The position numbers and the translations under genes were made by a program. From a virus (Duplodnaviria > Heunggongvirae > Uroviricota > Caudoviricetes), in the IMG/VR virus record IMGVR_UViG_2737471862_000003, positions 1 to 44,719 of that record: a stretch of 44,719 nucleotides of DNA. The stretch is one strand, 5' to 3'. Positions 22,540-40,321 of the stretch are shown piece after piece (the stretch's first letter is position 1; every line of letters starts with the position of its first letter). Below the pieces are notes generated by a model that did no database searches, was not told where the DNA came from, and saw nothing but the letters and a program-made list of their open reading frames with translations.

Positions 22540-23056
22540 TCCACCCGCCTACGTTCTCACCAGCTTTAGCTGCAACGTTGGAGGCTTTTGCGATTTCAGT
22601 TTTCACCACATCAAGGTGTGACGGTGAAATATCCGGATATTTACGCTGTAATGTCAGCGGCACACGTACAAGTATCCCCGAAATCTCCTGTGCCACACGT
22701 TGCAGAATGAAGGTAAACAATTCCGTTTCCAGTACCAGCCCTTCTTCGCGGGCATTTTTCAGTTCCTGTGCATCAGCCTGTGCTTTTGTGAGTCGGTAGC
22801 GCTCATAGTCAATGGTGCCGGGTTGTAAATCTGATTCCGCAGCCGCACGCAAATCCTCGGTCTCTTTGCGGAGTTTTTCGTTTTCAATATCGGCTTCGCG
22901 CTGCGCATACCACTGAATTGCCATGGCGGTATCAAATACAGATTCAACCCCCTTACTACCACCAGAGACACAAGAGAGCCCTTGAGACTGCCAGCGTTCA
23001 ATCGTTCGTGGATCCACGTTGAAAATTTCCGCGAGCTTCTTTTTATTAACCTTCAT
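22508..23056 (-). CDS. nu1: terminase small subunit Nu1
   Basis: Translation from the internal ATG ([27 protein letters not shown]...) is lambda Nu1-like, with a winged-helix N-terminus. Overlaps the A start. Confidence 0.9.
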
Positions 23057-23260
23057 AAAACATTTCCATATCAAATGCAGGGTCCGACATGGAAGTGCTC
23101 AAAAACGTCTTTTTCGGGCACTTTCATGTCGGACCTTTTACGGATGTGATTGATGAAAAAACAATGAGTTATACACGAGAAGTACCGACACGCTTTTTCC
23201 CGAAAAATTTTCATAAATAGCGAAAATCCGCGCCGCTGCCGCCCCGTGGCAGGCCACCCC
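23057..23260. other. cos site (cosB-cosN-cosQ region)
   Basis: The minus strand reads ACGGGGCGGCAGCGGCGCGGATTTTCGCTATTTATGAAAATTTTCGGG, closely resembling the lambda cos region (ACGGGGCGGCGACCTCGCGGGTTTTCGCTATTTATGAAAATTTTCCGG) immediately upstream of Nu1. The inferred cosN core is at about 23233-23244. Confidence 0.75.
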
Positions 23261-23781
23261 ACCGGAAGGACCCACACAAATGAGAGCATTTATCATTAAC
23301 ATTTACAGATAAGATGACGTACATCATTGAAACGCCATTCAGCCATATACAGGCAGCATTCGTAGTTGCACTCCGTAACTCTGCGACTAAGGTTAAAAAC
23401 ATGGCCCTCTTTTGCCACCGGCAAATCTTCAATGGATTTCCCCTGCCGGTTTTTTATTTTCGTCGATGTATAACATTGCATTTACATCAATAGCGGCTAT
23501 TGTCATTAGTATGTTGCATCAATGCATGGGTGGTATTGGCGGTCTTCGCCAGCCGGTTCTGTGTAGCTGCTCCCTGTGACCGGTTTTTTATTTCTCACAT
23601 TATCGCAGCCCCTCTGTGTGAAGGGCTGCTGTAATGCCTGCTGTTACTCAGTAACGACCGCGCCTTCCGGTAATTTCATACCGGCAAATACCGGACAGCC
23701 AGGTTATCAGGATCAGCCTTCAGGTTATTTTCTACAAACATAGTGTTCTCCTTTTGGGTACCCAGAGACATTCTGGGTCAT

Positions 23782-24006
23782 TCATGAAACAGGCAACAAC
23801 GTGGCTGTTACAATCTCCGCCATATTCGCGTTAAGATCACATTCAACAGAAATTTCTTCATCCGTGGCATCCACTTCATATGTCCGGGAATAACATTCCG
23901 TGCATTTACCACTGAAGATATCCTTAACCAGAACACGTCCACGCTGCAAAACCCTGAATGGAATCGTTCCGTTAAAGGGCTTTACGGTTACCAGTAATCT
24001 CTTCAT
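23782..24006 (-). CDS. hypothetical 74 aa protein immediately upstream of cos
   Basis: Internal ATG (MKRLLVTVKPFNGTIPFRVLQRG...) preceded by a strong GGAGG ribosome-binding site. No family recognised. Confidence 0.5.
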   Translation of the reverse strand: MKRLLVTVKPFNGTIPFRVLQRGRVLVKDIFSGKCTECYSRTYEVDATDEEISVECDLNANMAEIVTATLLPVS

Positions 24007-27767: not shown

Positions 27768-28256
27768 TTAAAACCGTTCCAGAGTGCATACCATCGCATC
27801 GGCGGGTAGTTTTTCCGTGAAGTCGACCTGACCGTGTTTATCGAAGTGGATCAGTAATGCGCATCCATCATTTTGGGTTGGGGTGTTTTGTGCTGCTGGT
27901 GGTTGTTTTTGGCTGAAATAACAGTCTTCCAGTTTTTCGAACACTTCCCACGCCTGATCGGTTTCCAGCATTTTGGCGTGACGGGCTGCTCCGCGTTCTG
28001 TCCAGAGGATGAGGTGCTTTGTACGCGGTGCAACTAAGTTACTTTGAGTAACCTTGTTCTTAAATTCCCGCAACTCAGCCCCTTCCAATTTGAAGTAGTG
28101 TTTCCCACAAACAAAACGCTCGGCATTGCGTGTATAGTTCACTTTGATGTTATTAGTTTCGGTGCCATAAAGTTGTGCCAAAAGCTCGGTAGTAATGACA
28201 GGGATTTGGTTATGGGTGATCGGGGAAAGAGTTTCAACTGAGATTTGAATAGCCAT
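27768..28256 (-). CDS. ORF6N/KilA-N-like phage regulatory (antirepressor-like) protein
   Basis: N-terminus (…IPVITTELLAQLYGTETNNIKVNYTRNAERFVCGKHYFKLEGAELREFK…) resembles the ORF6N DNA-binding domain. Family assignment is from memory. Confidence 0.55.
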   Translation of the reverse strand: MAIQISVETLSPITHNQIPVITTELLAQLYGTETNNIKVNYTRNAERFVCGKHYFKLEGAELREFKNKVTQSNLVAPRTKHLILWTERGAARHAKMLETDQAWEVFEKLEDCYFSQKQPPAAQNTPTQNDGCALLIHFDKHGQVDFTEKLPADAMVCTLERF

Positions 28257-28412
28257 AGGATGATCCTTTTTCTATGTGAATCATCACCACTGCTGACGCC
28301 AATCAGTATGGTGGTGAACTGTGCAGGGTTGGCGTAACCGGGAAAAAGGAACCGGCGCGGATCGCTCCGCCCCCACACAGCCCACCATTGAGATGTGACA
28401 GTGCAAACGACA

Positions 28413-28434
28413 ATAAAAAAGACGCTGGCGCGTC
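28413..28434 (-). terminator. tR'-like intrinsic terminator downstream of the late promoter
   Basis: GACGC-TGGC-GCGTC hairpin plus a T-run on the minus strand, about 60-70 nt downstream of the candidate late promoter. Coordinates approximate. Confidence 0.55.
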
Positions 28435-28495
28435 TGTTGTCGCCTTTTTCATCCGGGACGCCAATCCCGACGCCAGATTTTGCTGGCGCGTGAGG

Positions 28496-28525
28496 AATAT
28501 AGCCCCGGACAATGTGTCTGGTCAA
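28496..28525 (-). promoter_or_regulatory. candidate late promoter pR' (TTGACC-N18-TATATT) overlapping the Q stop
   Basis: The sigma70-like -35/-10 pair is read directly from the minus strand immediately 3' of Q. The position matches lambdoid pR'/qut. Confidence 0.45.
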
Positions 28526-31102: not shown

Positions 31103-31258
31103 TTACTCCTCAGATTCGTAAGCTGTGAAGACAGCGACCTCCGTCTGGCCGGTTCGGATTCGTACCTCGCAGAGGTCTTTCCTCGTTACCAGTGCCGTCA
31201 CTATGACGGTTAAACAGATGACGATCAGGGCGATTAACATCGCCTTTTGCTGCTTCAT
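31103..31258 (-). CDS. hok: Hok/Gef-family type I toxin
   Basis: MKQQKAMLIALIVICLTVIVTALVTRKDLCEVRIRTGQTEVAVFTAYESEE is essentially the HokD/RelF sequence. AAGGAG ribosome-binding site. Confidence 0.9.
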   Translation of the reverse strand: MKQQKAMLIALIVICLTVIVTALVTRKDLCEVRIRTGQTEVAVFTAYESEE

Positions 31259-31315
31259 AGCCTGCTTCTCCTTGCCTTTCGGCACGTAAGAGGCTAACCT
31301 AGATTTGCCGTTCAT
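31103..31315 (-). CDS. mok: Mok (modulator of killing) overlapping reading frame
   Basis: An in-frame N-terminal extension of 19 codons begins at an upstream ATG, as in hok/mok/sok loci. Confidence 0.6.
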   Translation of the reverse strand: MNGKSRLASYVPKGKEKQAMKQQKAMLIALIVICLTVIVTALVTRKDLCEVRIRTGQTEVAVFTAYESEE

Positions 31316-31360
31316 AGATTGAGCCTCAGATTAATGTTAAGCGTCTTGCCGGACGCGTAA
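31285..31360 (+). ncRNA. sok: predicted Sok-like antisense RNA (position inferred, not located)
   Basis: In hok/sok systems the antitoxin RNA is encoded antisense to the mok translation-initiation region. Here the position is inferred from that architecture only; no promoter or terminator was located. Confidence 0.25.
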
Positions 31361-31595
31361 TGTTAACTGGGGCTTTTCTCTGTCTGCCTTACAGTGGCAT
31401 GCCCGAGGCAGACAGCCTCAAGCACCCGCAACAATCTTACCGACACCGATAAGAAAACGCTATTTTTATTGCCAGAACCTTCTGCCCAGGCTAATGTATC
31501 CGCGTCAGAACGGCGCAATGCGCTCGCCTGAGATACGTTTACTTGTCATTGGTGGCAACAGATAACGGCAATTGTTGTTTCTGTTTGTTTCCTTC

Positions 31596-35087: not shown

Positions 35088-36308
35088 TTATCCCCTGAAC
35101 CCTGGTGGAATTTCGGTGTCCGGTTCAGAAATGTGATTCACACAACGCTGGTTGTTCGTGCCGCTTACCGGGAGCAACCAGGGGTTTTCAAAATTCCGGT
35201 CCGGTCCAAAAAACGTCGTCGCTCGCTGAACAAATTCCGTTCCCGCTTTCCCGGTCGCCGCCATGTATCTCGCGTAACGCCTCACACCATCCAGCATGGT
35301 CTCTGGTGACACCCCCTCGCGCAATCTGGCCTTCCAGGCACTGAATGCGGATTTCTTCGGGTTTGCCCCGGCACGCAACGGGTATTCCCGCCAGACCTGT
35401 TCGAACACATCCGGATAATCCACTCGTCCCACAGGCCGCCCGGTGTTTTCCGGGACTACCCGATCGGCTTCCCGCTGAATGGCGGAATCGGCTTCAGGCT
35501 GCTGCAGTTGGTGTGATTGCTCCGACCCTGCGGTCATCGCCTGCTGCACAGCGCCCGAATCGGCTTTCAGCGCATACGCCGAATCGGCTTCCGGTGTCGT
35601 GCCTGCTGGCTGACCAGAATTTACGGTCTGAACATCCCCTGCCTGGTTCATGGTGTTTTTTTCGCCATGAACCATAGTGTTTTTGTCCTGTTCCTGTTCT
35701 TTCTCCTGCTCCTGTTCTTGGCTTCGAAGCCCCTTAAAAGCCCCTTCGAAGCCCCTTACCGAATTTCGGCTATTATTCCGCCTCACATCCAGATGGAAAT
35801 CCGTTTTATATCTGTCGTAAAACGCTGACAGAAAAGCGTTTTCAGGTAATGATGCATACTCATTCCTGACACCTGCACAACGGTTATCGCCGGGCTTCAA
35901 CGTTTCCCCAACCTGCCAGGCTGCCATTTCATGGACCCAGACCATCTCTGCATCATGGTCATAGCTACAAAAACCAGCTTCAACAGCCCTTTTAAGCCCC
36001 TTTGAAGCCCCTTCCAGACCAAGCCCGGTTTCATGAGCAAGGTATAAAACTGGCAGGTAATACAAACCCAGCATATTTGCGTGAGGGGATGTCATCAGGT
36101 AAAAAGCAACAACTTGCGCTTCTGCACCCGCCTTTCTAAGTTCTCTCCCCGTTTCTCCCAGCCAGAATCGCGGAGAAACTTTTGCGTAATCACGCATGGC
36201 TACCTCATCTGGTGCCGAACCTTCCTCCGGATATAATCTGTGGTTCCCAATCGACAGAACCAGAGGAGGTTCGACATGTATTTTTTGAAAAGCCTTTATC
36301 AGGCTCAT
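35088..36308 (-). CDS. hypothetical 406 aa protein, candidate replication initiator (contains phased DNA direct repeats)
   Basis: Large ORF downstream of the cro/cII-like genes with an internal Glu/Gln-rich linker (SQEQEQEKEQEQDK). The DNA inside it carries iteron-like repeats. Confidence 0.5.
   Translation of the reverse strand: MSLIKAFQKIHVEPPLVLSIGNHRLYPEEGSAPDEVAMRDYAKVSPRFWLGETGRELRKAGAEAQVVAFYLMTSPHANMLGLYYLPVLYLAHETGLGLEGASKGLKRAVEAGFCSYDHDAEMVWVHEMAAWQVGETLKPGDNRCAGVRNEYASLPENAFLSAFYDRYKTDFHLDVRRNNSRNSVRGFEGAFKGLRSQEQEQEKEQEQDKNTMVHGEKNTMNQAGDVQTVNSGQPAGTTPEADSAYALKADSGAVQQAMTAGSEQSHQLQQPEADSAIQREADRVVPENTGRPVGRVDYPDVFEQVWREYPLRAGANPKKSAFSAWKARLREGVSPETMLDGVRRYARYMAATGKAGTEFVQRATTFFGPDRNFENPWLLPVSGTNNQRCVNHISEPDTEIPPGFRG
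35727..36013. repeat. five copies of AAGCCCCTT in two clusters with 11 bp phasing (iteron-like)
   Basis: Plus-strand copies at about 35727, 35738, 35749, 35994 and 36005. The copies fall in different reading frames, so the repeat is at DNA level rather than protein level. Confidence 0.6.
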
Positions 36309-36414
36309 GTATTAAATGTTGCAGCAACAAACCGCTGGTGTAACAGCCCCGAAATGCTCCCGGATTACAGAGCCTGGCTGCGCGCCGAAACATACCTTCG
36401 TCTCGACATATTGA

Positions 36415-36924
36415 TTAGCGAACTTCAAAAAGAGACTGCATCCATTCATAACCTTCAGGGTATCGACGCTGTTCGCATTCTGGTATCGCGCCATAGTGCT
36501 CTCTCAATAATTGAAGTGCGTCATCTCTCTTTTTCTGAACTGATTTTCTTGCTTCAACCAGCTCTGGAATCAGCGAATATCCCACCGGAAGTGATCCAAT
36601 ACCCACCTCATGTTGACGAGCAGTTACAAGATGTGCCATACAACCAGCGTGCTGGATTGACTCCCTGCTCAGAGGCTGAATGGGATCACTCTCTGCTGAA
36701 GAAATACCAAGATTTGTATAATCCTCAATAAGCCCGGCACACGCTTCTGCATCAGCCAGCTTTATTCTGGTTTCCTTGCGCTGTTCTCTGTCTGACAAAC
36801 GCCAGAGCAGCGCATTAGCTTTATGTATCAACCACTCTGCCAGCTCCACATCAGATAAACCGCCACGCCAGATGTGCGGACTGTTTTCGTAAACGCTCAG
36901 TGTCAATTTTTTGTCATTACTCAT
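36415..36924 (-). CDS. hypothetical 169 aa protein
   Basis: Start at the internal ATG (MSNDKKLTLSVYENSPHIWRGG...). No family recognised. Confidence 0.45.
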   Translation of the reverse strand: MSNDKKLTLSVYENSPHIWRGGLSDVELAEWLIHKANALLWRLSDREQRKETRIKLADAEACAGLIEDYTNLGISSAESDPIQPLSRESIQHAGCMAHLVTARQHEVGIGSLPVGYSLIPELVEARKSVQKKRDDALQLLREHYGAIPECEQRRYPEGYEWMQSLFEVR

Positions 36925-36937
36925 ATTTATTACCCAA

Positions 36938-37363
36938 TTAATGCACAGCCAGAGTGTTTCCTGCCGGGCCACCACGATTCATCTGGTTGAAACCAGCAAT
37001 CGCCACTGCGACAAAATCATCAGCGTCTCTCACCAGTCGTTCCCGCGTCTCCACCAGTTCCCGAAACCAGGCTGAACAGTGGCTGCGCATTCGGGCCACC
37101 AGCAGAGGTGGCATTGCTTTTTCGATCGCTGGTAACAACGCCTGAATTTTTTTAACCGCATCAGGGGTGTCTTTATCCAGCCAACGGAAAATTTTCTGGG
37201 TATTACGAGCCAGCGCTTCCGGATGCCTGTCGTCATATAGCTCCGGGAACGTCATACCCAGCTCAAAATAAGCCTGGGTTATTTCAGCTGCCGGAACTTT
37301 TTCACCGTCCGGATGCGCCCAGGCATTCATCGCCATACGGATGTGTTCATGCTTGATTTTCAT
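36938..37363 (-). CDS. YdaT-like protein (CII-analogue of Rac-type prophages)
   Basis: MKIKHEHIRMAMNAWAHPDGEKVPAAEITQAYFELGMTFPELYDD... resembles Rac YdaT as I remember it. Immediately downstream of the Cro-like gene. Confidence 0.6.
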   Translation of the reverse strand: MKIKHEHIRMAMNAWAHPDGEKVPAAEITQAYFELGMTFPELYDDRHPEALARNTQKIFRWLDKDTPDAVKKIQALLPAIEKAMPPLLVARMRSHCSAWFRELVETRERLVRDADDFVAVAIAGFNQMNRGGPAGNTLAVH

Positions 37364-37622
37364 GAATCAACTCCGGTGTATTTGGTGTGTTAGCCTTATC
37401 TCCAGCAGGCAACCCGTCAGTTGGATTCGGGTATAAATCTGGTCGCAATTCATGAGGAGTAACCCCAGTTGCAATATAAATTTGACGAACCCGTTCCCCC
37501 GTCGGAACTCGACCATTGTATTCATTTGCCCATTTGTGTATTTGAGATGGCCAAGCCCCTATTGCACGCCCTAGAGGACGAATACCACCAGCAATCTTTA
37601 TTGCTTTGTCCAATGCTGTCAT
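37347..37622 (-). CDS. Cro-like / YdaS-family helix-turn-helix regulator
   Basis: 91 aa (MTALDKAIKIAGGIRPLGRAIGAWPSQIHKW...TGVTPHELRPDLY), divergently transcribed from the repressor gene. Confidence 0.75.
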   Translation of the reverse strand: MTALDKAIKIAGGIRPLGRAIGAWPSQIHKWANEYNGRVPTGERVRQIYIATGVTPHELRPDLYPNPTDGLPAGDKANTPNTPELIHENQA

Positions 37623-37652
37623 ACAACCTCCAGTTCAACTAACCACAACAAT

Positions 37653-37711
37653 TGTTCACTTAAAACGAACATAAGTCAACACCTCGAGGAATTGTTAGTG
37701 TTCACTGAACG
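37653..37711. promoter_or_regulatory. OR-like operator region: TGTTC-N9-GAACA inverted repeat plus a second TGTTCACT-containing site between divergent promoters
   Basis: TGTTCACTTAAAACGAACA at about 37653-37671 and TGTTCACTGAAC at about 37699-37710. TTGACT lies on the minus strand for the cro-like gene. Confidence 0.55.
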
Positions 37712-37719
37712 GTTATAAT
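37692..37719 (+). promoter_or_regulatory. pRM-like promoter (TTGTTA-N16-TATAAT) giving a near-leaderless repressor mRNA
   Basis: TATAAT ends 7 nt before the repressor ATG. Lambda cI is also leaderless from pRM. Confidence 0.5.
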
Positions 37720-37725
37720 TGCTAA

Positions 37726-38115
37726 ATGGACATGAGAAAAAAGCAATACGACACCCCGCTAGCAGAAAGGTTAGATGCGATCTCTCAACAGCATCATTTA
37801 AGTGGTTCAGATTTAGCGCGTATCGCTGGTGTAGGTCGTTCATCAGTCAACGCATGGAAAAAAAGAGGAACAATCAGTAAAGATTCCGCAGCCAAAATTG
37901 CAGAAGCCACAAACGTTTCCCTTTCTTGGCTACTGACAGGGAAAGAAGAGACAAATAGAGAAGCGCTTGATGATGACGAGAAGGCCCTGCTTGATGTTTA
38001 CAGAAACCTGCCACCTGTAGAACGTAGAAATATGCTGGCAGCTTTTCAAATGCGACTTCAAAAACTGACCGAATTTTACTCAGAATACGTCGACCCAATA
38101 ACACGACAAAAATAA
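37726..38115 (+). CDS. prophage repressor (CI-like, XRE helix-turn-helix, no peptidase domain)
   Basis: 129 aa with helix-turn-helix LSGSDLARIAGVGRSSVNAWKKRG, divergent from the cro-like gene and followed by a strong terminator. Confidence 0.8.
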   Translation: MDMRKKQYDTPLAERLDAISQQHHLSGSDLARIAGVGRSSVNAWKKRGTISKDSAAKIAEATNVSLSWLLTGKEETNREALDDDEKALLDVYRNLPPVERRNMLAAFQMRLQKLTEFYSEYVDPITRQK

Positions 38116-38137
38116 TTCTTTATTTTACAGAATCATA

Positions 38138-38159
38138 CCGCCGCAAGGCGGTTTTTTTT
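38138..38159 (+). terminator. strong intrinsic terminator after the repressor gene
   Basis: CCGCC-GCAA-GGCGG hairpin with a GNRA loop followed by eight T. Confidence 0.8.
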
Positions 38160-38180
38160 ACCTTTTACGTATTCATTATG

Positions 38181-38209
38181 TTGACTTTTGTTCACCTAGA
38201 GAGAACAAT
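38181..38209 (+). promoter_or_regulatory. pL-like promoter with overlapping operator (TTGACT ... TGTTC-N9-GAACA)
   Basis: TTGACTTTTGTTCACCTAGAGAGAACAAT has the same architecture as the minus-strand cro promoter (TTGACTTATGTTCGTTTTAAGTGAACAAT). Confidence 0.55.
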
Positions 38210-38283
38210 GTATTCCATCAAAGCACAACGGTGCGACAGGTCTTAGTTCCGCCACCCCGGCGTTAAGGGGAAATGAGGTCAGC

Positions 38284-38436
38284 ATGGATACTATCGATCT
38301 TGGCAACAACGAATCTCTGGTATACAGCGTGTTTCCCAACCAGGACGGCACATTCACCGCGATGACGTATACCAAAAGCAAAACGTTTAAAACCGAAACT
38401 GGCGCACGTCGCTGGTTAGCCAGAAATACTGACTGA
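38284..38436 (+). CDS. hypothetical 50 aa protein, first gene of the early-left operon
   Basis: ATG with a GAGG ribosome-binding site (MDTIDLGNNESLVYSVFPNQDGTFTAMTYTKSKTFKTETGARRWLARNTD). Not in the ORF track because it is under 60 aa. Its stop overlaps the next ORF. Confidence 0.55.
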   Translation: MDTIDLGNNESLVYSVFPNQDGTFTAMTYTKSKTFKTETGARRWLARNTD

Positions 38437-39290: not shown

Positions 39291-39684
39291 TTTATCCTCC
39301 ATTGAGGTTACTGGTTGAGAATGGAGACCACACGTGACAGCGTGTTGTCGTGCGCCGGACACGGATAAGAATCCGGCACTGATAGTTTATGAAAGGATAT
39401 ATCCCTGAAAAGTCAGGGCATAACACGGAAGCGCACGGCGGAGGTGTCTTTTCCTTAGAAGGCTTGTCGTTAGATTTCTTCGACCGTGCGCTTCCGGTTG
39501 TGGCACTCCGCGAAATGGCGCGGCGGTAAGTATGGCGGGGTTATTCCTTACCCCCATTGGTGGCACCGGGTTGTCAGGTTGACCATACGCCTGAGTGACA
39601 ACCCCGCTACAACACTCCATGTTGATTTGTACCTTTGGCGGCATCAGTTTCATTGCTGGCTGATGTCCGCCCTTTTTAAAGTGA

Positions 39685-39853: not shown

Positions 39854-40042
39854 ATGGAAACATTATTACCAAACGTTAATACGTCTGAAGGTTGTTTTGA
39901 AATTGGTGTCAGTATCAGTAACCCTGCATTTACTGAAGATGCCATTAATAAGAGAAAACACGAACGGGAGTTATTAAATCAAATATGCATTGTTTCAATG
40001 CTGGCCCGTTTACGTCTGATGCAAAAAGGATACTGGCAATGA
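39854..40042 (+). CDS. hypothetical 62 aa protein
   Basis: ATG with a GAGGA ribosome-binding site. Translationally coupled (ATGA) to the next gene. Confidence 0.5.
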   Translation: METLLPNVNTSEGCFEIGVSISNPAFTEDAINKRKHERELLNQICIVSMLARLRLMQKGYWQ

Positions 40043-40230
40043 ATACAGCATTCGCACTCGTTCTGACAGTTTTTCTTAATACAGGCGAACCACTTGACCT
40101 TATTGTTGATATACGTGACTCAATGGAAGAATGCATGGCTGCCGCAGATGAACAGAAAATTCCCGGTAACTGTTATCCGGTCGATAAAGTTATTCGCATG
40201 AATAATAACGAAGTCCCGGCAGGGCTTTAA
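40039..40230 (+). CDS. hypothetical 63 aa protein with N-terminal hydrophobic (signal/transmembrane-like) segment
   Basis: MNTAFALVLTVFLNTGEPLDL..., with an AAGGA ribosome-binding site. Confidence 0.5.
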   Translation: MNTAFALVLTVFLNTGEPLDLIVDIRDSMEECMAAADEQKIPGNCYPVDKVIRMNNNEVPAGL

Positions 40231-40321
40231 ACCAGCACAGTAATAAATATCCGGTTTCATTTTTATATGCCAGCAATGGGCAGGGATTTGTTCACCCTAA
40301 AAATGGTTATGAGGTTTATCA

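Follow-up and report, generated by a model that had tools for sequence, protein, structure and literature searches.

A putative immunity switch in a lambdoid Escherichia coli prophage with perfect TGTTC-N9-GAACA repeats on both early promoters

The stretch of DNA analysed here, IMG/VR virus record IMGVR_UViG_2737471862_000003 (Caudoviricetes; 44,719 nucleotides (nt), referred to in its full length as the window), carries a short repressor gene that is divergent from a Cro-like gene and ydaT. We consider it highly likely that this region serves a lambdoid Escherichia coli prophage as its immunity (lysis/lysogeny) switch and that it works by the mechanism proposed below. Two perfect copies of the inverted repeat TGTTC-N9-GAACA lie inside the promoters of the two early operons, and sequence comparisons provide strong indirect evidence that the repressor and the Cro-like protein use these repeats as operators. 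The comparative evidence and the homology of YdaT uphold the overall reading of the initial annotation, in which a repressor gene and a Cro-like gene diverge within a lambda-like immunity region that also has a CII analogue. The genes, promoters and candidate operators concerned are the following.

37347-37622, minus strand: Cro-like gene (YdaS family), 91 amino acids, with a GGAGG Shine-Dalgarno sequence before its start
37679-37651, minus strand: pR-like promoter from the promoter scan, TTGACT/17/AACAAT, reading toward the Cro-like gene and ydaT; its -35 is invariant among variants
37653-37671: candidate main right operator TGTTCACTTAAAACGAACA, a perfect repeat in the spacer and -10 of the pR-like promoter
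37692-37719, plus strand: pRM-like promoter from the promoter scan, TTGTTA/16/TATAAT, reading toward the repressor gene
37726-38115, plus strand: immunity repressor gene, 129 amino acids, with an N-terminal Cro/CI-type helix-turn-helix and a two-helix C-terminal domain
38137-38160, plus strand: intrinsic terminator after the repressor gene from the promoter/terminator scan (stem 38137-38152, then a T-run), stem and T-run kept in all variants
38181-38209, plus strand: pL-like promoter from the promoter scan, TTGACT/17/AACAAT, reading into an operon with ydfA (DUF1391), a DicF-like RNA, dicB, an exonuclease gene and xis-int
38189-38207: candidate left operator TGTTCACCTAGAGAGAACA, a perfect repeat on the pL-like promoter; its register matches that of the right operator on the pR-like promoter

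Across the whole 44.7 kb window, TGTTC-N9-GAACA occurs in perfect form at 37653-37671 and 38189-38207 and nowhere else, i.e. two copies versus 0.07 expected, a number reached in none of 100 shuffles. When two mismatches were allowed, 37 matches were obtained versus 23 expected, so that imperfect copies carry little weight alone. A promoter scan of positions 37300-38400 returned exactly three promoter-like sites and one good terminator, and both perfect repeats, which are 536 bp apart, fall inside predicted promoters, namely the first (pR-like) and the third (pL-like) of the three, in agreement with the earlier placement of the operator repeat on the Cro-side and pL-like promoters. At both promoters alike, the repeat spans the spacer and its distal half forms the -10 hexamer (AACAAT). 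The divergent start codons of the repressor and Cro-like genes are 103 bp apart, with one promoter per strand between them. Aligned by their elements, the three promoters (pR, pL and pRM) show an identical register.

pR-like: -35 TTGACT, gap TA, left half TGTTC, centre GTTTTAAGT, right half/-10 GAACAAT
pL-like: -35 TTGACT, gap TT, left half TGTTC, centre ACCTAGAGA, right half/-10 GAACAAT
Repressor promoter: -35 TTGTTA, gap G, left half TGTTC, centre ACTGAACGG, right half/-10 TTATAAT

The immunity core was found in 82-91 of 5,426 complete E. coli genomes, many O157:H7 strains included, at 89-100% identity. For comparison we used seven aligned E. coli variants together with regions collected from genomes and viral contigs, of which 16 on the right and 13 on the left were distinct. 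In the right operator, ATTGTTCAC and GAAC are fixed across the 16 distinct sequences, and in the left operator GTTCA and AGAACAAT are fixed across the 13, while in both the central five to seven bases and the flanks vary. Modules from Lelliottia, Salmonella and Klebsiella, the repressors of which are 76-81% identical, carry repeats at matching positions: in all four genera the right repeat lies at -73 from the repressor ATG and the left repeat at +74 to +77 after the stop codon. The repeats remain in these three genera, whereas the leader of the Cro-like gene and the segment separating the two -35 elements are diverged. Repressors of the same family with other recognition helices were compared as well. 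Where the recognition helix carries W[Y/F]KRG instead of W[K/R]KRG (WKKRG here, its first K being K45), the half-sites at the same positions read TGTTAGC..GCTAACA; the helix SRSAAHRW is accompanied by TGTTG..CAACA half-sites, and SPTSVTNW by TTGAGCC..AGCTAA, again at the same positions. The helix-turn-helix of the Cro-like protein changes together with the operator type across the modules as well. A blind scan of 2.9 million viral contigs with the motif TTGAC-N3-TGTTC-N9-GAACAAT returned 31 loci, 25 of which encode the repressor (80-100% identical) directly adjoining the motif, and wherever a locus carried two copies (20 of 20) these were divergent, about 530 bp apart and located on either side of the repressor gene. 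Because the half-sites are conserved and co-vary with the helices, and because the blind scan recovers repressor loci, the repeats are taken as the likely operators.

Two other explanations of the repeats have to be considered. The 31-nt similarity between the right and left regions (repeat I1) takes in the -35 and -10 hexamers, which would be conserved for polymerase binding anyway, and the region could thus represent a duplicated promoter with incidental symmetry that no protein reads. We regard this as barely credible, as the GTTCA positions in the spacer are conserved despite being dispensable for polymerase, while the central spacer bases vary; moreover, the symmetry is retained in four genera, and the half-sites become other symmetric sequences when the recognition helices change. 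Alternatively, the repeats might be read by the Cro-like protein only, the repressor recognising another sequence, and the helix-turn-helix of the Cro-like protein does co-vary with the repeats as well as that of the repressor. The recognition helix of the repressor co-varies equally, however, and no other repeat common to the right and left regions was found. Lysogenic repression would furthermore need an operator at pL, and the repressor and Cro of all characterised lambdoid switches (lambda, CP-933P, Qin) have their operators in common (PMC8630535, PMC10448788), which makes a division of this kind quite improbable.

The situation at the repressor promoter is different. The third copy of TGTTC-N9-GAACA that had been assigned to this promoter did not hold, as the register 37693-37711 (TGTTAGTGTTCACTGAACG; TGTTA-N9-GAACG) has two mismatches and is lost in Lelliottia, Salmonella and Klebsiella, in which the TGTTCAC half-site and TATAAT are retained. 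The left half-site GTGTTCAC adjoining TATAAT is the only part of the third site that is conserved across genera; the sequence GTGTTCACTG at 37698-37707, followed by GGTTATAAT, is kept in E. coli, Lelliottia, Salmonella and Klebsiella. Judged from these sequences, the site listed first below, with a perfect left half and the -10, is probably the best reading of the third site, and a further weak candidate lies next to the main operator.

37699-37717: weak third site TGTTCACTGAACGGTTATA, left half-site perfect, right half formed by the -10 of the repressor promoter
37632-37650: possible extra weak site AGTTCAACTAACCACAACA with two mismatches, adjoining the main operator within the 5' leader of the Cro-like mRNA

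At 37632-37650, GTTCAC is present in Lelliottia and Klebsiella, variable in E. coli and absent in Salmonella, and its assignment as an operator appears doubtful. TGTTCAC itself occurs 15 times in the window versus 7.7 expected. No partnered site was found near 40289, where the initial annotation had pointed to a half-site; this is a lone TTGTTCAC, and it was ruled out as an extra operator with its partner half absent and lone TGTTCAC common. Of the three shared operators originally proposed, those at the pR-like and pL-like promoters therefore stand as perfect copies, whereas the repressor promoter retains a half-site only.

We regard it as a substantial possibility, although the balance tips against it, that only the two perfect repeats are functional, with neither this half-site nor 37632-37650 occupied, and that repressor at the right operator shuts off the Cro-side promoter and also helps its own promoter, as has been proposed for DicA at Oc, with no cooperative three-site array of the lambda kind involved. 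No array of three operators was found in either control region: each has just one strong site, without a second or third at pL. No repeat was found between the two -35 elements, and this stretch varies freely among the variants. The weak site at 37632-37650 is not conserved. In Qin, DicA bound Oc but not Om or Oa in vivo, and Oc-bound DicA activates dicA (PMC3441716); because DicA thus bound only one of three predicted operators, a design with one strong operator is a serious alternative to a lambda-style array. Against it stands that four genera retain GTGTTCACTG in the repressor promoter's spacer, even though spacers normally drift, and that paralogous modules have their own half-sites at that position (GATTAGC, AATTAGC, TGTTGC).

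In the mechanism that we favour, the repressor, presumably as a dimer, would bind the 19-21 bp inverted repeat (A/T)TTGTTCA-N5-7-GAACA(A/T)(T/A), and its presence on the strong copies at the pR-like and pL-like promoters would exclude RNA polymerase from both early operons, as geometry, conservation and co-variation suggest. The half-site plus TATAAT at the repressor promoter would most likely be occupied weakly, resulting in negative autoregulation at high repressor levels, or might represent a preferred target of Cro; this part of the proposal is uncertain. As its helix-turn-helix co-varies with the inverted repeats, the Cro-like protein of the YdaS family is expected to recognise them too. 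By homology to CP-933P and Rac, YdaT would bind the YdaT-box over its own start codon and activate a PRE-like promoter toward the repressor. The geometry of the repressor promoter suggests that the A of ATG 37726 is most likely the first nucleotide of the repressor mRNA, which would then be translated leaderless. As with DicA/Rem and the Gifsy repressors, induction is expected to proceed via an antirepressor or by spontaneous switching, because the repressor should not be able to cleave itself. We infer that such a switch would be bistable, a behaviour of repressor-versus-Cro expression that has been demonstrated for CP-933P and Qin (PMC8630535, PMC10448788).

Several points weigh against this proposal. 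The third site is a half-site only, and as the pRM-like region is invariant within E. coli, the evidence for it comes from three other genera; in Qin, DicA bound one of three sequence-predicted operators, so that weak sites may be non-functional (PMC3441716). Repressor and Cro co-vary jointly, and the comparison cannot tell which of them contacts the repeats, whether both do, or in which order of affinity; operator occupancy in this module is deduced wholly from sequence. In a near-identical RefSeq record, the annotation by the Prokaryotic Genome Annotation Pipeline (PGAP) starts the repressor at the second ATG, 37732, so that the protein would begin with MRKK and not with MDMRKK. Regarding induction, the rem position yielded no Rem homologue (a Rem-type antirepressor at its Qin position was dismissed for want of similarity), and no antirepressor was identified in the window, which may not hold the whole prophage; likewise, no site with both CTGT and ACAG cores of a LexA box was found in the window.

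In Pfam, the repressor matches only helix-turn-helix families (PF07022 at 1.6e-12, and PF01381). An S24 peptidase domain with an Ala-Gly cleavage site was not found in its 129 residues, judging from Pfam and from the two C-terminal helices of the model, and RecA-stimulated self-cleavage is therefore not expected. The AlphaFold model (mean predicted local distance difference test score (pLDDT) 81) has five helices plus two C-terminal ones, with SinR in the SinR-SinI complex as the best PDB match. DicA is the best named relative (BLASTP 25% identity over 110 residues, E = 3e-6), the similarity including the C-terminal LLxx[FY]xxLPxxE region. Against the NCBIfam DicA model (NF007257), the repressor scored 37.2 bits versus a cut-off of 101, with an alignment covering residues 12-123 of 129, and it does not count as a DicA by this criterion because the score lies below the curated cut-off. 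Three other assignments were rejected: only a 28-residue helix-turn-helix stretch aligns with RacR; no similarity to PaaR2 was detectable (BLASTP E = 10); and the published cloning primers for gfoR and gftR encode termini that do not match, which speaks against a Gifsy GfoR/GtgR repressor, and tblastn against phage records returned no Gifsy record. On the basis of its sequence features, the protein is best described as a distant DicA-like short repressor with a predicted lack of the cleavage domain. In the family alignment, residues 85-129 (PPxERRNMLAAFQMRLQxLxxFY..DPxTRQK) show 72% mean pairwise identity across specificity groups versus 66% for the DNA-binding domain.

The TATAAT of the pRM-like promoter ends at 37719 and the first ATG of the repressor is at 37726, leaving 6 nt between them; its A is the 7th nt after the hexamer, in line with the distance given in the initial annotation. 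No Shine-Dalgarno sequence precedes ATG 37726. The spacing between the -10 and the first ATG is 6 nt in nine of ten related loci and 7 nt in the remaining one, and this includes loci without the MDM prefix. The same -10-to-ATG spacing is known from the lambda cI mRNA transcribed from pRM, which is leaderless. For paaR2 of CP-933P, a leaderless transcript was shown by 5'RACE (rapid amplification of 5' cDNA ends), N-terminal sequencing and mass spectrometry (PMC8630535), and its GATAAT-taccac-ATG has the same geometry as the repressor gene here. A leaderless repressor transcript, predicted to start at the A of ATG 37726, is thus well supported by analogy. Of the leaderless repressor claimed earlier, the geometry, conserved in ten loci, and the lack of a Shine-Dalgarno sequence are observed, whereas the transcript start itself is a prediction by analogy.

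On the other side of the switch, the Cro-like protein matches PF15943 (7e-10, 39 bits, cut-off 30) and phrog_35 (5.8e-25), shares 30% identity with Rac YdaS and matches the Cro protein of a Xylella prophage in the PDB at 1.4e-3, and no relatedness to CP-933P YdaS or to DicC was detected. YdaT matches PDB entries 8bt1 (CP-933P YdaT) at 4e-78 and 3c4r at 4e-87, as well as PF06254 (42 bits, cut-off 21) and phrog_163, described as 'CII-like transcriptional activator'. By sequence it belongs, as far as identity indicates, to the CP-933P type (about 85%) and not to the Rac type (33%), and a perfect YdaT-box completes the picture, so that the CII-analogue-like gene originally noted after the cro-like gene is corroborated.

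36938-37363, minus strand: ydaT, CII-equivalent activator, 141 amino acids, its start overlapping the Cro-like gene by 17 nt
37353-37370: YdaT-box TTGATTTTCATGAATCAA, a perfect TTGATT-N6-AATCAA across the ydaT start codon

The box is identical in sequence and placement in CP-933P and, like the box of Rac, lies across the ydaT start codon. In both of these prophages the YdaT operator has been footprinted, and the YdaT-box activates a reverse PRE-like promoter, raising repressor expression (PMC9986795, PMC11879457). By analogy, we infer a putative PRE-like promoter toward the repressor, driven by the YdaT-box, in the present module too; TAGCCT at 37391-37396 on the plus strand might be its -10. 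Directly after the stop codon of the repressor, at 38119-38136, lies a YdaT-box-like sequence TTTATTTTACAGAATCAT with two mismatches; the YdaT tetramer is able to hold two DNA duplexes (PMC9986795). As a second YdaT-box this sequence was set aside as probably due to chance, its right half varying among the E. coli variants.

Switches of this kind are already described experimentally in CP-933P, Rac and Qin. In CP-933P (PaaR2/YdaS/YdaT; PMC8630535, PMC9986795), as here, a short repressor gene diverges from a Cro-like gene with ydaT behind it, promoters of the pR, pRM, pL and PRE types are present, the repressor ATG lies 6 nt past the -10, and both YdaT and the TTGATT-N6-AATCAA box over the ydaT start correspond. 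In contrast, its PaaR2 and YdaS show no detectable similarity to the repressor and the Cro-like protein of the window, and its operators are four evenly spaced palindromes of 18 bp and of the GTTTAGTAA type, whereas here TGTTC-N9-GAACA is found with one strong copy per side. In addition, the paaA2-parE2 toxin-antitoxin genes follow the repressor in CP-933P, whereas here the terminator at 38137-38160 and then DUF1391 take their place. Qin of E. coli K-12 (DicA/DicC; PMC3441716, PMC10448788) resembles the module in a repressor that can be aligned with DicA over its whole length (25% identity), in the left operon with DUF1391/ydfA, a DicF-like RNA, dicB and DUF1482, and in one strong inverted repeat over the Cro-side promoter, the DicA operator Oc TTGTTAGTCATAACTAACAA likewise beginning with TTGTT. 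The repressor is non-cleavable in Qin too, where DicA is relieved by the antirepressor Rem. Unlike in Qin, the operator of the window is one base longer with different inner half-site bases, and its repressor stays below the cut-off of the DicA model; DicC is unrelated to the Cro-like protein, and Qin is without an intact ydaT-type CII gene at the corresponding place.

The resemblance to Rac (RacR/YdaS/YdaT; PMC5700373, PMC11879457) comprises YdaS (30% identical), YdaT (33%) and the YdaT-box over the ydaT start, which drives a reverse PRE-like promoter, whereas operators and left operon differ and RacR shares the 28-residue helix-turn-helix stretch only. With lambda CI/Cro/CII, the module has in common the gene order, the promoter logic and operators common to the right and left control regions; it differs in a repressor without an S24 self-cleavage domain, in the absence of evident three-site arrays, and in the replacement of Cro and CII by the unrelated YdaS and YdaT folds (PMC9986795). 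The Gifsy repressors GfoR/GfhR/GtgR with their LexA-controlled antirepressors are also short non-cleavable prophage repressors, a group in which DicA and RacR have been placed as well (PMC3121763), although the primer-encoded N- and C-termini of gfoR/gftR do not resemble the repressor here. Relief of such short repressors by antirepressors has been reported for Gifsy GfoR/GtgR by GfoA/GftA and for DicA by Rem (PMC3121763, PMC10448788).

Understanding of how such switches work is unchanged by our finding. What may be new, although the evidence of novelty is weak, is the specificity, i.e. the combination of this repressor family with the TGTTC-N9-GAACA operator; no published description of the exact operator strings was found in the literature searched, the coverage of which was incomplete. 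From the comparison, the operator can be defined in testable form, as TTGTTCA-N5-7-GAACA(A/T)(T/A), for an immunity type with relatives in Salmonella, Klebsiella and Lelliottia. Because the repressor sits upstream of their operon, knowledge of the operators helps to predict the expression of the dicB/DicF-like cell-division inhibitors, and it further helps to predict homo- versus heteroimmunity of co-resident prophages. The paralogous modules, in which helices and half-sites change in a matched way, are a ready series for studying the evolution of repressor specificity and a possible source of orthogonal repressor/operator pairs. Tentatively, and with the odds rather against it, at least four or five of these modules could be natural heteroimmune versions of one minimal switch design, in which one dimer operator per promoter doubles as the -10, a few recognition-helix residues in repressor and Cro reset the specificity, and the conserved C-terminal domain acts as a shared handle for a common antirepressor. 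If true, heteroimmune prophages of this repressor family could be co-induced, a behaviour demonstrated with Gifsy-1 and Gifsy-3. Of all leads, we consider the co-variation series across the family and the conserved C-terminal domain the most promising.

An almost complete lambdoid prophage of strain VG35A2 is collinear with the window, comprising tail, head, terminase, lysis, Q, replication, immunity, dicB region, exonuclease, xis and int. Phage records match the window in the flanks but not in the immunity core, and across loci the block of repressor, operators and Cro is accompanied by YdaT proteins that are 79-99% identical, by one of about 30% identity (Rac-type), or by none. Because the core varies against matching flanks and with mixed YdaT genes, the module appears exchangeable in the classical lambdoid pattern. 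The term 'Rac-type' used in the initial annotation is imprecise for such a mosaic: it fits the YdaS and YdaT families, whereas the repressor with its 28-residue match to RacR, the operators, the Qin-type left operon and the CP-933P-type YdaT do not conform to it. At one Salmonella enterica locus (L030, 1393-2090), the right region has repeats of the TGTTAGC..GCTAACA type, but the pL region carries a different repeat, TATTCGCCAATGACAAATA, and this may be a hybrid or decayed immunity region.

The left operon is of the Qin type, with DUF1391/ydfA at 38284-38436, a DicF-like RNA at 39624-39672 on the plus strand, dicB at 39855-40043, and DUF1482. The RNA, located upstream of dicB, scored 38.7 bits in a local search (E = 9e-7), below the Rfam gathering score of 48, and looks like a DicF orthologue that has diverged. 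The 5' leader of the pL-like operon (38216-38283) is conserved across heteroimmune modules from six genera and in K-12 Qin, and contains two hairpins, the first (GCAC-loop-GTGC) with an invariant stem and the second (CCCC-GGCGTTAA-GGGG) with compensatory stem changes (GCCC/GGGC, GCCA/TGGC, CCG/CGG). The fold of the whole leader is no more stable than that of shuffles; the leader might function as a nut-like element or as one for processing.

On the minus strand at 27768-28502, we observed a C4 antisense RNA (28307-28392), isrK (28415-28489) and c4-a1b1 targets (28450-28502), which closely follow the Q antiterminator gene and precede an ORF6N/Ant-like open reading frame (27768-28256) that is annotated as truncated in the near-identical RefSeq record. 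This segment resembles a P1 immI-type antirepressor module and might offer an induction route for a non-cleavable repressor. Other features of the window include two long open reading frames overlapping on opposite strands, one at 36276-36731 on the plus strand (NCBIfam ECs1072 family, 2e-30) and one at 36415-36975 on the minus strand (phrog_8304, 3.6e-119), a hokD/sok toxin-antitoxin locus at 31103-31427 (Rfam sok, 110 bits), and an IS3-family insertion at about 22844-24006 between the terminase and lysis regions.

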